Shown in pieces: positions 3,082 to 7,393 of a stretch of DNA of 64,000 bases. Origin of the DNA: Escherichia coli (GTDB lineage: Bacteria; Pseudomonadota; Gammaproteobacteria; Enterobacterales; Enterobacteriaceae). The notes below the pieces were generated by a model that searched no databases, was not told the origin of the DNA, and worked only from the letters and a program-made list of their open reading frames with translations. Position numbers and translations under genes: made by a program. Numbering within the stretch: the stretch's first letter is position 1; the number at the start of each line of letters is the position of its first letter. The stretch lies in the NCBI RefSeq assembly GCF_030013205.1, contig NZ_CP122648.1; one strand, 5' to 3'.

Positions 3082-3447
3082 TCATGCCCGGCAATGCGTA
3101 CCTGATACCAGCGATGCGATATCCTGCTGGTGGATGAATGAGAGAATCTTCACCGACACCACCGATACCAGTACCGCACAAAGCGCGTCGAGAGATGTGC
3201 TGTGGAGATTCAATTTTTCGACCAGCCAGGACGCAAGGACATCCGCCCCCAGCACGCCAACAATGAACGACACCAGAAAATGCGCCGCCACACGCCAGAC
3301 AGAAATCACCTGTGGCATCGTGGCCACAAACAACGCCCCGGCAAACGCGCCAAACACAATCCCGAAATCCGTCCCGGTAAACAGCCCGAATACCGTCGCC
3401 CCGCCGAGCGCCACAGCAGTGCTGGAACCGGATAAGGGTTCAGACAT
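3082..3447 (-). CDS. Small integral membrane protein, holin-like (3 predicted TM segments), function unknown
   Basis: ATG at 3447 preceded by AGGAGA Shine-Dalgarno; Gly/Ala-rich hydrophobic segments; sits at the junction with truncated gene I. Confidence 0.45.
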   Translation of the reverse strand: MSEPLSGSSTAVALGGATVFGLFTGTDFGIVFGAFAGALFVATMPQVISVWRVAAHFLVSFIVGVLGADVLASWLVEKLNLHSTSLDALCAVLVSVVSVKILSFIHQQDIASLVSGTHCRA

Positions 3448-3646
3448 ATTTATTCTCCTGTAAATAAAAAGGACCATCAGCGGCCCCGTAACTGACATTT
3501 TATTAACGTTTGAAGATATGGATATTTATCAGGGTTTACCGTTTTCTGAACCCTGGATATGTTAAGCATTCAGCCGGCCAGTGGTGGGACGCTGGCTCAT
3601 CATAGAGAAAGAGGGATGGCTGATTACCTCTGATCAGGGAAATCAC

Positions 3647-3916
3647 ATGCAGTTTTTACATAAAAGAATGCATTTAAATGCAGGAGATACGGTAGTGGTT
3701 GACTGCTCTCATCAGTGCAATATTTTGCTGATGACAGATACAAACTTTAATAACTACCGCAACGCAAGAAGCTTTCATCATCACGGTGGTGGCGGTTTTT
3801 TTCAGAGATTACCGGCCCACCTTCATGTACCGCATTCAGGTTACTGGAATATTACAATTGATTTAGGAGGCGGAAGTGCAGCTATTCGGCACTCCATTTC
3901 CGTCATCCCAGCATAG
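3647..3916 (+). CDS. Small His/Gly-rich hypothetical protein (DUF1883-like, from memory)
   Basis: 89-aa ORF MQFLHKRMHLNAGDTVVVDCSHQCN…HHHGGGGFF…, AGGGA SD 6 nt upstream; opposite strand to surrounding late genes. Confidence 0.5.
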   Translation: MQFLHKRMHLNAGDTVVVDCSHQCNILLMTDTNFNNYRNARSFHHHGGGGFFQRLPAHLHVPHSGYWNITIDLGGGSAAIRHSISVIPA

Positions 3917-3951
3917 CAACTCGCCTTTAGCCTGAGTAAATGCGTCCTCAA

Positions 3952-3986
3952 GGACGGCAACGAGTCGCAGTTGCGTGCCGTCCTTT
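3952..3986 (+). terminator. Hairpin terminator downstream of the DUF1883-like gene
   Basis: 8-bp stem ggacggca/tgccgtcc with 16-nt loop followed by TTT. Confidence 0.35.
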
Positions 3987-4274
3987 ACACAGCGTGTGCA
4001 GGCAATACCTTCAGAACTTTCATTATGCCGAGCTCATACAATTTCACCATTTTGTTCAACTACAACGCTCATAATTTTCTTACACTTTTTTAATAAACCA
4101 CACCAATAACAACCATCACCGATACCTTTTGTATGCTGTTATTTTGCATTACGGTGTAACGGCAAGAGCCCCCTCCCCGCCCTGAAAGGCTCTGTGTTTT
4201 TGATGTGCGCCTGATGTGGCTCAGATACAAAAAAGCTCGCAGTAGCGAGCTAACAGAAAATATGAAGCATGTTT

Positions 4275-4553
4275 TTATCCACGAAGTATGACGTTGAATT
4301 CATCCATACCGACACGGCTGGCTATCTCGTTGTATTCCTCAACAAGAGCCAGCAATTCTGAATTAGCAGCCATGAACTCTTCAAAAACCTTATGGATGGC
4401 ATCACTGTTTAATAAAACAATGTTCTTTCCTGAAAGGCGATCAGGGGTAGAAAATATAACTGTCAAACGACTAAAGGCCCTGGCTCGTTCAGCATTAACA
4501 TCCTCAATACGCTGCAACAAGCTGGAGCACCTGGAAATATCATCAATATTCAC
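4275..4553 (-). CDS. Hypothetical protein, 92 aa
   Basis: GTG start with AGGAG SD 5 nt upstream; no recognisable family; preceded by a 518-bp non-coding leader. Confidence 0.45.
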   Translation of the reverse strand: MNIDDISRCSSLLQRIEDVNAERARAFSRLTVIFSTPDRLSGKNIVLLNSDAIHKVFEEFMAANSELLALVEEYNEIASRVGMDEFNVILRG

Positions 4554-5071
4554 TCTACTCCTGCCATCTGGATGATAATCATTTCACGGAGAGAAGCACT
4601 CAGAAGTACCACTGAAGTATAGCTGGCGACCAGCTACTTACACATCTATTGCCATCCTGCTGATGATAAGTCGACATTAGCCCTTCTGTCTATAAACGAA
4701 ACAAAGGATAAGTTCAGGTTTTAAACACACTGCCAGGATAAAGTATTGCATACAGTATAGAAGAGCGTTATTGAATGACATAAAAAACCAGACCTAATCC
4801 CTTATCCGGAAGATATATCAAATAAACGGGGAAAATGTATTAAGATGGCGTTCCTATTCTCTCCATCCCTGATGTCCACGTAACTCGTTATAGAATCAGA
4901 ACGCCATCTGAATACACACAAAAAAGCTGGCTTCACACCCTCCAGATGTGTGAACGCAGTGCCCGACCACGTGCTTTCGCAACCAGCACAAATCATTTTA
5001 AAGCATCGAAAAACGATCAGAATATATCAGAACTTCCTAGCATCCTGCTTGGCTTAGATATTAATCGAGGA

Positions 5072-6157
5072 TTAGCTCCTGTTCTTATCTAATTGTGCAT
5101 TTCGCAATTTATCGTTCAGCACCAATATTTCACCAACTGTTTGTTCAAAACGCCCGGACTCAAGTTCAACCCCAATCGTGCGACGCCCCAATCCCATTGC
5201 TGCTTTTATTGTTGCCCCCGATCCCATAAAAAAATCCGCAACCACATCCCCCGGACGACTGCTGGCAGAAATTATCTGACGCAACATATCCGCCGGTTTT
5301 TCGCAGGGATGCTTACCCGGATAATACTGCACGGGCTTATGCGTCCAGACGTCCGTATAAGGAACGGCGGCCGATACAGAAAAATAACGCCGCAGAGATT
5401 TGTATTCCTCAAGCAGACTGGCATATTGCCGGTTCAGTTCACTGTATGTGCTGACCAGTTGCTGGTGTGGCGTTGCCAGCTCCCCACGCTGGTGCTTTTC
5501 TTCTGCAACACACGCGAACAGCGCCTGCAGTTTTCTGTAATCAGCTTCGTTCGGTAACTGCCACTGACAGGTACCAAACCAGTGCGACACCATGTTTTTC
5601 TTTCCGGTGGCTTCCGCTATCTGTTTGGACGTTATCCCCAGTGATTCACGCGCATCACGGAAGTAAGAAATCAGCGGGGCCATGACGTGTTGTTTAAGCT
5701 CGCGCTCCTTTGCCGCATAGCCATCATTTTTTGGCTGGTATGGCCCCTGATAATGTTCGGCAAACAGAATGCGCTCTGTTGCCGGGAAATACGCCCGCAG
5801 GCTTTCTTTGTTGCACCCGTTCCAGCGTCCGGATGGCTTCGCCCAGATAATGTGGTTCAGCACATTAAAGCGCTCACGCATCATGATTTCGGTGTCAGAT
5901 GCCAGGCGATGACCACAGAACAGGTAGAGACTTCCGGCAGGTTTCAGTACCCGCCAGAACTGAGCCAGACACTGATCCAGCCATTTCAGGTAATCATCGT
6001 CGCCCTTCCACTGGTTATCCCAGCCCTCGGGCTTCACTTTAAAGTATGGCGGGTCTGTGACTATCAGATCGACAGAGTTTTCCGGTAAGGTCTGGATAAA
6101 TTCCAGGCAATCAGCGTTGATTAACTCACAACTGGATATTTTTACAGTATCAACCAT
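5072..6157 (-). CDS. DNA methyltransferase, beta-class N6-adenine/N4-cytosine family (orphan, phage-type)
   Basis: DPPY motif (DLIVTDPPYF) N-terminal and FxGxG AdoMet motif (DFFMGSGAT) C-terminal; 361 aa; no adjacent restriction endonuclease. Confidence 0.8.
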   Translation of the reverse strand: MVDTVKISSCELINADCLEFIQTLPENSVDLIVTDPPYFKVKPEGWDNQWKGDDDYLKWLDQCLAQFWRVLKPAGSLYLFCGHRLASDTEIMMRERFNVLNHIIWAKPSGRWNGCNKESLRAYFPATERILFAEHYQGPYQPKNDGYAAKERELKQHVMAPLISYFRDARESLGITSKQIAEATGKKNMVSHWFGTCQWQLPNEADYRKLQALFACVAEEKHQRGELATPHQQLVSTYSELNRQYASLLEEYKSLRRYFSVSAAVPYTDVWTHKPVQYYPGKHPCEKPADMLRQIISASSRPGDVVADFFMGSGATIKAAMGLGRRTIGVELESGRFEQTVGEILVLNDKLRNAQLDKNRS

Positions 6158-6307
6158 AGATCAATAAGCACTTCTCTGATAGGCTCATACCGCTTTTGCG
6201 CAAAGCAGATGGGCCTGAGGTTTGCTTGTGACCCTAACGCATGAGCAGATGGCTGGCAGGTGCCGCTAACACCCACCAGCCGCCCATTACCACAAATGAA
6301 AAAACCT

Positions 6308-6505
6308 TCACTGCGGAAGGCGTCTGTAACAACCGAACTGATAATCTGCCAGACCCGCCATAACAAGCTGGGTCAGTATTAACTGACAGCGTTCGCGTGA
6401 AAGGTAAGTATTCTGCGCAATTTCCCCAACTGTTGCCGGTTCAGTGACGCTTAATTCATTAAACACCACTCTGGCTGTTTCGGTCATATCCTGCTGTTTT
6501 AGCAT
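6308..6505 (-). CDS. Small hypothetical protein, possible winged-helix DNA-binding fold
   Basis: ATG at 6505; MLKQQDMTETARVVFNELSVTEPATVGEIAQNTYLSRERCQLILTQLVMAGLADYQ; a longer in-frame form up to 6673 (TTG) cannot be excluded. Confidence 0.35.
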   Translation of the reverse strand: MLKQQDMTETARVVFNELSVTEPATVGEIAQNTYLSRERCQLILTQLVMAGLADYQFGCYRRLPQ

Positions 6506-6889
6506 GTCTTTTTTCTCTTTATTGGTTAACGTGACATACCAATAACTCTTGTCGAAAAAGCCAGCAAGCTGAAAGACCGGTATTAATAACCACCTGCACA
6601 TTTTATGTACCGAACCATTTTTCTGGCATAAAAAACCTCTCAATGGCGGGCGGTAAAAATCTTTGTTACTCAAGAAATTTTAACGCACTCTGACTGTATT
6701 AATTTCAAAATCATTAATATTTCCGCTATTAAATATAACGAATTTCTTACCCCCACTCCTGTATGATTTCGATAACACCAGACGATCATCATAACGCGCA
6801 ATAATGTAATACCATACATTCTCATAGTGGATCGCCTGATATTCCCTCTTAAACTGTGGTTTGTACCAACCGGCAATAAGAGAGAATGC

Positions 6890-7393
6890 TCAGAAATAAA
6901 TCATAAACCCAGCCATCATGAACTCAATTCGGTGATGACGAATAAAAGACATTTCCGAAAAACATTTGACTGAAACAAGTCTTCTTCCAAACCTGACAAA
7001 AAGCGTGATTGTAAAGGCAGCAAGAATGCAGAAAATCAGTACATCTGGCTCAACATGCTGATGAATTACCGAAAACTCCAGAACAGGTGGAATAAAAAGC
7101 AGCAATATCGCGAGAAAAAGCCGGATAAAACTCAAATTTTGTATATTGCGCTTTTGTTTTATGCCCAAAAAGAAAACAATACCAACTCCCCATCCAATAA
7201 GGAATATAACGATAACTGTCACAGCATAAAACAAACTTCGTGCTACATCATCGACACCAGCCCCGACAACCCACCATGGAAAGCCATAGTAAAATGAAGT
7301 ACCCCATCCATAGAAATAAGCGCTTCCCCATCCTAGACAGCCCATATAAGCAACAAAAAGTGAAGAGTTTCTGAGCAGAGCACTGTCATCCAT
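6890..7393 (-). CDS. Polytopic membrane protein, unknown function, in an AT-rich island
   Basis: 167-aa ORF with ATG start, several hydrophobic segments, Trp/Tyr/Gly-rich N-terminal region; local GC far below flanks; immediately downstream of the Q-like gene. Confidence 0.5.
   Translation of the reverse strand: MDDSALLRNSSLFVAYMGCLGWGSAYFYGWGTSFYYGFPWWVVGAGVDDVARSLFYAVTVIVIFLIGWGVGIVFFLGIKQKRNIQNLSFIRLFLAILLLFIPPVLEFSVIHQHVEPDVLIFCILAAFTITLFVRFGRRLVSVKCFSEMSFIRHHRIEFMMAGFMIYF

Follow-up and report, generated by a model that had tools for sequence, protein, structure and literature searches.

The block at positions 3082-7393 of a 64,000-nucleotide (nt) stretch of Escherichia coli DNA (contig NZ_CP122648.1; the whole stretch is termed the window) lies between a late antiterminator gene, Q, and remnants of phage tail genes. 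It holds several small genes, among them a solitary DNA methyltransferase, and this raises the question of whether they are a cargo island that has taken the place of phage lysis and head genes, or whether they are found where they belong. The initial annotation, made from the sequence alone, took the first view and regarded the block as a candidate for an undescribed defence, exclusion or virulence locus. The comparison with intact prophages gives a different answer. Very probably, the block is an accessory (moron) stretch native to a decayed lambdoid prophage; it lies at the head of the late operon, between Q with its pR′ and tR′ signals and the lysis cassette.

The prophage is defective and adjoins tRNA-Ser and hyaA, according to the RefSeq annotation of the matching locus. 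Window positions 2600-8400 are 100% identical to the chromosomes of pig enterotoxigenic E. coli (ETEC) and of O139:H1 E. coli, e.g., ETEC4069. On the minus strand the order is integrase, a decayed early region, a ParD/ParE pair, a DUF968 gene, RusA, Q, the block, and fragments of the tail genes I, J, stf and tfa. A complete prophage from E. coli N18-04097, integrated at the same tRNA-Ser/hyaA site, was used for comparison, together with two further intact relatives, prophages L004 and L005.

The N18-04097 prophage has Q, a membrane protein gene of 237 amino acids (aa), a 65-aa open reading frame (ORF), the methyltransferase gene, a 92-aa ORF (termed orf92), an opposite-strand DUF1883 gene and a holin gene in the same order as the window, and positions 3101-10056 are collinear with it at 97.3% identity (BLAST). 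Past the first holin, N18-04097 continues directly with a second holin, a GH108 endolysin and small ORFs, and then with the terminase, portal, protease, capsid and tail genes; in all three intact relatives the order after the block is holin, holin, GH108 endolysin, terminase. To the left of position 3112, the window aligns to the C-terminal two-thirds of the N18-04097 gene I. In the intact prophage this point is 17,552 bp distant, and the two alignments have 12 bp (3101-3112) in common. The missing ~17.55 kb comprise the second holin, the endolysin, the Rz region, terminase, the head genes, the tail genes through K, and the 5′ end of I. The deleted form is common to at least 17 genomes of pig strains, and other genomes have an intact junction. 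Thus, through a single deletion of ~17.5 kb, the first holin gene is fused at its 3′ end to tail gene I, at the middle of the latter. It is this deletion, and not displacement by the block, that accounts for the absence of lysis and head genes from the window. As the same block precedes these genes in the intact relative, and as the two prophages are collinear, the block is in its native place and the apparent slot is a deletion scar. Coordinates of all features are in Table 1.

Table 1. Features of the block and its borders, in window coordinates.
Feature	Position	Strand	Basis
Tail assembly gene I remnant, N-terminus missing	2643..3113	-	phrog_32 / phrog_4554; RefSeq pseudogene notes
First holin of the lysis cassette, truncated	3082..3447	-	phrog_198 5e-39
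Deletion junction	3101..3112		holin of intact prophage to the right, gene I to the left; BLAST alignments overlap
79 bp preceding the DUF1883 gene, perhaps a promoter or 5′ region	3518..3596	+	91% shared with DLP12/Qin-type cassettes
Stand-alone DUF1883 gene, 89 aa, antisense to the late operon	3647..3916	+	Pfam PF08980
Putative orf92 intrinsic terminator within a 69-bp element	4182..4251	-	hairpin 4251-4234 + T6; fold -12.3 kcal/mol, z = -4.9
orf92, 92 aa	4275..4553	-	phrog_2873 9e-47
Non-coding leader of orf92, 518 nt	4554..5071	-	hairpin + T-run, inverted repeat, promoter-like site
Orphan beta-class N6-adenine DNA methyltransferase, M.EcoGII clade, 361 aa	5072..6157	-	M.EcoGII identity, PADLOC, PDB relatives
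Terminator-like hairpin + T-run, overlapping the stop codon of the small winged-helix gene, upstream of the methyltransferase gene	6304..6321	-	terminator scan, sequence
Small probable winged-helix protein, 65 aa	6308..6505	-	phrog_331 4.8e-39
Multi-pass membrane protein pseudogene, 237 aa	6680..7393	-	RefSeq 'internal stop'; phrog_1521/14371
pR′-like promoter + two-hairpin leader + tR′-like terminator	7532..7640	-	promoter scan, sequence, fold
Late antiterminator Q, 221 aa	7648..8313 (mechanical ORF to 8319)	-	phrog_304 'anti-termination protein Q-like' 1.6e-104; RefSeq 'bacteriophage antitermination protein Q', no pseudogene flag

All of the ORFs listed in the initial annotation are present, and its Q-like antiterminator, orphan beta-class methyltransferase, DUF1883-like gene and truncated I, J, stf and tfa genes are borne out by PHROG, Pfam and RefSeq. 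Its placement of cargo in the slot of the lysis and head genes does not hold. The related statement that no lysis or head genes follow Q is correct for the head genes and the endolysin; however the gene called holin-like is a true holin, the first of the lysis cassette. An intact 129-aa homologue of this holin matches the full model of Pfam Phage_holin_8 (PF16931) at 1.1e-22. The window protein ends ...SLVSG-THCRA, whereas the intact one ends ...SLVSG-LFSRLRGGGGNVK, so that the last 13 codons have been lost, and no endolysin gene is found downstream next to it. Thus the window holin is a remnant and not a working lysis gene. The view that the block sits in a moron slot of a lambdoid prophage is confirmed: in the relatives the slot lies after Q and before the lysis cassette, the cargo is variable, and the GC content is atypical (0.39-0.43 for the membrane gene, orf92 and DUF1883, as against 0.50 for the window).

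The possibility that a coherent undescribed defence, exclusion or virulence island was inserted in place of lysis and head genes can be weighed with these data and with the distribution of the components among 5426 complete E. coli genomes. In favour of an island, the hotspot is a known one for morons and holds low-GC genes of unknown function, PADLOC makes no assignment for five of the six genes, and the whole block is found in 39 genomes. However the synteny, with lysis and head genes following the same block in intact relatives, largely refutes it, and the components are distributed independently. The module formed by the small winged-helix gene and the methyltransferase gene (window 5136-6637) is found in 2393 genomes (44%), with up to 8 copies per genome, the membrane gene with its pR′ leader in 451, and the orf92 cassette in ~49; orf92 and DUF1883 occur together in 39. 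Co-occurrence of the gene set elsewhere had been set beforehand as a test of the island, and it is seen in only ~39 near-identical prophages, but each gene also occurs elsewhere without the others. In addition, components are swapped one by one in relatives, and the set includes one pseudogene, one clipped holin and one M.EcoGII-type methylase. An inserted island therefore has very little probability.

The statement that no gene of the block belongs to a described defence system is upheld. The methyltransferase alone is matched by PADLOC, as a generic methyltransferase; no family of PADLOC-DB v2 matches the membrane protein, orf92, DUF1883, holin or Q, and the small winged-helix protein has one match at chance level (E = 0.009). 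No direct or inverted repeats that might mark an island were found bracketing the block. ARAGORN detects no tRNA genes in the region, Rfam families give no match at E <= 1, and small ORFs in the non-coding gaps, including the orf92 leader, have no PHROG match. Thus the whole is an ordinary mosaic moron region in a prophage that is largely dead, with a truncated membrane gene, a clipped holin, no endolysin and no virion genes. The truly uncharacterised genes of the block are two small ones only, orf92 and the stand-alone DUF1883 gene.

The frame of the block is that of a toxin locus. The best phage match is phiP27, an Stx2e phage, with 90% DNA identity over the winged-helix and methyltransferase genes (5136-6637) and 84% over the holin (3100-3486; holin L28 of phiP27). 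The stx2e locus of phiP27 (Recktenwald & Schmidt 2002) resembles the window in having, in the same order along the late strand, a winged-helix gene, a methyltransferase gene, a cargo slot, an antisense small ORF and a Phage_holin_8 holin. Between methyltransferase and holin, phiP27 carries tRNA-Ile, tRNA-Arg, stxA2e, stxB2e and the antisense ORF, whereas the window slot holds orf92 and DUF1883, with neither tRNA genes nor stxA/stxB, and no stx coding sequence is present within the 64 kb of the window. A 33-bp island at 4218-4250 matches phiP27 just upstream of stxA2e. The two also differ at their ends: Q and the next gene of phiP27 are of another type, the latter coding for a GIY-YIG protein in place of the membrane pseudogene of the window, and phiP27 has a second holin after the first, whereas the window has lost everything past the first. 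The phiP27 antisense ORF, L27, was considered as a relative of DUF1883 and rejected, as the two show no similarity.

Similar arrangements are found in other Stx phages. In the Stx2 phage 1720a-02 the order is Q, small ORF, methyltransferase, and then stx2. In a 2025 survey of porcine Shiga toxin-producing E. coli, 71% of strains had a DNA methyltransferase gene flanking stx2e upstream, and 73% had two holin genes flanking it downstream (PMC12571312). Exchange of cargo is directly visible in prophages L004 and L005, which differ in cargo and are otherwise 98% identical. L004 has TerB and DUF3927 genes (L004 4340-4914) instead of DUF1883; L005 has both DUF1883 and the TerB/DUF3927 genes (L005 4651-5210), with an insertion joint that corresponds exactly to window 4181/4182. 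The TerB/DUF3927 pair is tciA/tciB of phage JLK-2012, where it follows Q and three tRNA genes. Thus the block is a mosaic of separately exchangeable cassettes, on the frame that carries tRNAs and stx2e in phiP27 and stx2 in other Stx phages.

Late-region morons with their own promoters and terminators are standard in Stx and lambdoid phages (PMC8065619). The classical examples, lambda bor and lom, tciA/tciB, nanS-p and stx, are like orf92 and DUF1883 in being small, of low GC and located in the late region, in having their own terminator or an opposite orientation, and in varying between near-identical phages. The hotspot is the exact frame that stx2e occupies in phages of the phiP27 type from the same pig-associated E. 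coli. Here it belongs to a non-toxigenic resident prophage of oedema-disease and ETEC strains whose methyltransferase and holin flanks are 84-90% identical to those of phiP27. To judge from these flanks, homologous recombination over them could shift cargo, stx2e included, between phages.

It should also be considered whether orf92 and DUF1883, as convergent genes, together make up a lysogenic-conversion module of two genes, e.g., of a toxin/antitoxin-like or sensor/effector kind, that replaced stx2e. The two genes are adjacent and convergent, have the terminator region 4182-4251 in common, are both of low GC and uncharacterised, and are present together in 39 of the ~49 genomes with orf92. 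However orf92 is found without DUF1883 in L004, in phage mEp460 and in prophage L008, and DUF1883 without orf92 in elements of Pseudomonas, Citrobacter, Serratia, Klebsiella, Burkholderia and Mesorhizobium. The TerB/DUF3927 cassette can separate the two, and the families are of very different size (19 representatives for orf92, 1967 clusters for DUF1883). A two-gene module is thus quite improbable, and separately exchangeable cassettes in a native moron stretch are the preferred reading.

Many lambdoid phages have the 69-bp element at 4182-4250, which includes the putative orf92 terminator, at 81-91% identity. In JLK-2012 it lies between the Q-proximal tRNA cluster and tciA/tciB, in vB_Apl-pPE4, a phage whose recorded host is Actinobacillus pleuropneumoniae, it precedes TerB, and in phiP27 it is found between tRNA-Arg and stxA2e. 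From this distribution it looks like a shared mosaic joint for the exchange of cargo cassettes. In vB_Apl-pPE4 (3001-4867) the element, at ~81% identity, is followed by TerB, a small ORF, holin and holin, as in the phiP27-type late region; either the host assignment of this phage is unexpected, or there has been a recent transfer among pig-associated bacteria.

The methyltransferase is 85% identical in protein sequence to M.EcoGII over 345 aa; the M.EcoGII reference is that of Table S1 of the SUPREM paper (PMC11551740), machine-read from the PDF, and a few of the mismatches may be character-recognition errors. It is also 85% identical to the methyltransferase of phage 1720a-02. Its motifs are intact, with DPPY (35-38) before FMGSG (310-314), which is of the FxGxG type. 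M.EcoGII is a prophage-borne, non-specific adenine methyltransferase that is silent in the lysogen and harmful if constitutively expressed, and very similar enzymes were noted in phage 1720a-02 and other enterobacterial phages (PMC5778455). M.EcoGII and M.EcoGI, from prophages of E. coli O104:H4, are like the window enzyme in the beta-class order of motifs, in being prophage-borne and in being solitary. In both the window and 1720a-02 the gene is in the late region beside the same small ORF. However M.EcoGII has 349 aa and the window enzyme 361, and the C-terminal tails differ. A mosaic joint at 5136 lies inside the 3′ end of the methyltransferase gene, where homology with phiP27 and 1720a-02 stops, and because of this joint the last ~17 residues differ from those of the relatives.

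As the best PADLOC matches of the enzyme are 'MTase_II' models (8e-153, a generic Type II/orphan methyltransferase assignment), and its PDB relatives are beta-class methyltransferases that include the restriction-modification methylases M.RsrI and M.MboIIA, it might be regarded as the surviving half of a Type II restriction-modification system and the block as a decayed defence locus. Against this, no restriction endonuclease is detected beside the gene by PHROGs, PADLOC or NCBIfam, its neighbours being the winged-helix gene and the orf92 leader. The same nuclease-free layout, with the winged-helix gene on one side and the cargo slot on the other, is found in phiP27, 1720a-02 and the intact relatives. 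M.EcoGII, to which the enzyme is 85% identical, is itself solitary and non-specific (PMC5778455), and the module is conserved as an orphan in the 2393 genomes given above. A restriction-modification remnant is extremely unlikely, and the gene is best placed with the orphan methyltransferases of the M.EcoGII clade. An enzyme of the M.EcoGII type would methylate adenines of replicating phage DNA late in infection, regardless of sequence, and this methylation may guard progeny DNA against restriction in the next host.

Transcription signals are in keeping with a native moron stretch. A pR′-like site, TTGCAA-17-TATATT, is found at 7640-7612, eight bases past the Q stop codon. The leader that follows is ~70 nt long and displays two hairpins; the second (7561-7538), with a run of seven U, resembles the intrinsic terminator tR′, and positions 7525-7610 fold at -22.4 kcal/mol (z = -2.7). 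The location and form of these signals suggest pR′ and tR′ roles for 7532-7640. Of the 10 terminator-like sites in the region, 8 are on the late strand (5.4 ± 2.6 would be expected in total). In the lysogen, transcription from pR′ would halt at tR′ and at the terminators at 6304-6321, ~4920-4985 and 4234-4251, and the membrane, winged-helix and methyltransferase genes would therefore be silent. Upon induction, Q would render RNA polymerase terminator-resistant, and the whole stretch would be read en route to the lysis and morphogenesis genes. The terminator layout fits such Q-dependent read-through of late-strand genes and their silence in the lysogen. The orf92 and DUF1883 genes, which are built like classical morons, would be expressed from the prophage without dependence on Q.

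The interval from pR′ to tR′ (7532-7610, minus strand) would also yield an RNA of ~70 nt with two hairpins in the lysogen. A regulatory small RNA derived from pR′, reported for Stx phages (reviewed in PMC8065619), is a by-product of the same kind; no Rfam family is matched by the RNA from 7532-7610.

Several points weigh against the reading of the block as an ordinary moron stretch with the gene roles proposed here. The region has 10 promoter matches, all at the level of consensus, as against 9.5 expected from shuffled sequences. No convincing promoter is found upstream of the DUF1883 gene, where the best hexamers by eye score 8/12. The presence of orf92 and DUF1883 together in 39 of ~49 orf92-bearing genomes might reflect a functional link between them. 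The window methyltransferase would be non-specific by its 85% identity to M.EcoGII, but its C-terminal ~17 residues are unlike those of that enzyme. Lastly, the role of the winged-helix protein is a guess, its Pfam matches being weak.

The most interesting lead is the stand-alone DUF1883 gene, yet it is a single-gene moron, widespread and strongly conserved, of many temperate phages and not special to this block. Residues 1-88 of the protein align with model positions 1-87 of 89 (Pfam 1.8e-26), and PDB entry 2b1y is matched at 2.9e-8. Among Enterobacterales, Pseudomonas, Burkholderia and Mesorhizobium, stand-alone homologues of ~88 aa share 55-84% identity, and a profile search finds the 1967 clusters given above. 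In the alignment, invariant positions include H5, N25, G49, G50, W67 and D72, and C20 and H22 of a CSHQCN motif are near-invariant. The AlphaFold2 model (confidence score pLDDT 93) is a small beta-sandwich that has only generic GOLD/CBM-like neighbours. In bacterial TIR proteins, DUF1883 is one of the partner domains that predominate (PMC9153377). The window protein has the same Pfam domain as the TIR-DUF1883 proteins of that study and as Atu1913 (PDB 2b1y); however it consists of the domain alone, with no TIR or other effector domain, and belongs to a tight stand-alone subfamily with the CSHQCN motif, which is absent from Atu1913, as is His5. TIR-fused relatives do not appear among the best 120 matches listed in the profile search, all of which are stand-alone. 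As a side observation, the CSHQCN motif together with His5 may form a metal site.

In prophages of Pseudomonas and Citrobacter, and in the Pseudomonas phage vB_Pae_U6, the DUF1883 gene is a single antisense gene in the gap between the lysis genes and terminase. A Serratia prophage and the Klebsiella phage ST13-OXA48phi12.5 have it between tail genes, likewise antisense; thus it is antisense to late or tail operons in all five Enterobacterales and Pseudomonas phages examined. Other mobile contexts are found in Burkholderia, in Mesorhizobium and on a metagenomic contig, and no partner gene recurs across the eight contexts. It is possible, though rather unlikely, that the stand-alone DUF1883 gene, and possibly orf92 too, is a new single-gene lysogenic-conversion factor in phage-host conflict. 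If so, the DUF1883 protein might act as a superinfection-exclusion factor, as a sensor mimic, or as a decoy that blunts TIR-DUF1883 defence proteins.

Ahead of the DUF1883 gene, 79 bp (3518-3596) share 91% identity with the sequence upstream of an unrelated 79-aa antisense gene, located between ydfR/essD and rrrQ in DLP12/Qin-type lysis cassettes of ~100 E. coli genomes. By this similarity the stretch may be a promoter or 5′ region shared by different antisense morons.

The orf92 product has no Pfam, NCBIfam or PADLOC match. A single-sequence AlphaFold2 model (pLDDT 81) predicts two long helices and a loop with a conserved TPDR motif, and a Foldseek search of the PDB with this model gives nothing below E = 0.1, with generic coiled-coil matches only. 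The family is tiny, the 19 representatives being those found among 1.84 billion proteins, with 4 clusters in an indexed search. A homologue that is 61% identical follows Q, tRNA-Met and tRNA-Arg in phage mEp460, and one that is 41% identical follows a DUF1133-type antiterminator and tRNA-Thr in prophage L008. Thus orf92 has a conserved place, the toxin slot, just past the antiterminator or tRNA genes; in phiP27 this slot holds stx2e.

The initial annotation had described orf92 as lying behind a long structured leader. The ORF and the leader are both there; however the leader as a whole folds no better than shuffled sequences (z = -0.15), and a single local hairpin stands out. Past the methyltransferase gene, a branched hairpin at ~4985-4920 is followed by a T-run and is terminator-like. 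By sequence match, a promoter-like site, TAGACA-18-TATCAT (4692-4663; 10/12), and a good Shine-Dalgarno sequence precede orf92. Right after the T-run is a 25-bp inverted repeat (4836-4860 / 4892-4916), 88% complementary with a 31-nt loop, which is the local hairpin just mentioned (-32.5 kcal/mol, z = -3.5); it did not turn up as a multi-copy element. The leader and orf92 were considered as a conserved unit and this was rejected, as the similarity with mEp460 covers only the ORF and ~30 bp upstream. A tRNA or known RNA in the leader was likewise rejected by the ARAGORN and Rfam searches given above.

Two genes remain on the Q-proximal side of the methyltransferase. The membrane-protein gene is AT-rich, as had been noted (GC 0.39 for the ORF at 6890-7393), but this ORF represents only the first 167 codons of a 237-codon pseudogene, in which a TGA at 6892-6890 replaces Trp168 of the intact protein (WP_000342735 in N18-04097). 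The PHROGs matched are of unknown function, and there is no Pfam or NCBIfam match. The small winged-helix-like ORF is present as described, with weak support for the fold: Pfam TrmB is matched at 0.0088, and DprA_WH, MarR_2 and HTH_24 at 0.1-0.3. It is 93% identical to the ORF between Q and the methyltransferase gene in phage 1720a-02, and RefSeq gives its phiP27 homologue, L23, the name 'TrmB family transcriptional regulator'. The gene is a conserved upstream partner of the methyltransferase gene, and the pair travels together; the protein is probably a regulator or partner of the enzyme. This small partner of a common M.EcoGII-type methyltransferase appears to be unstudied. The strain from which the window derives has 3 copies of the pair.

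Two side observations concern the rest of the prophage. The J, stf and tfa fragments lie leftwards of the gene I remnant (RefSeq pseudogene notes; PHROGs). This tail end (window 503-2417) has extra internal deletions, with ~0.7 kb and ~3.1 kb of J gone and stf also affected, and at 503-1330 the stf/tfa region is partly replaced by sequence that has no counterpart in the intact relative. On the early side, the ParD antitoxin and ParE-RelE toxin pair (10141-10703, plus strand) lies between a nin-like region and the DUF968 gene, and its position is taken by other genes in N18-04097.

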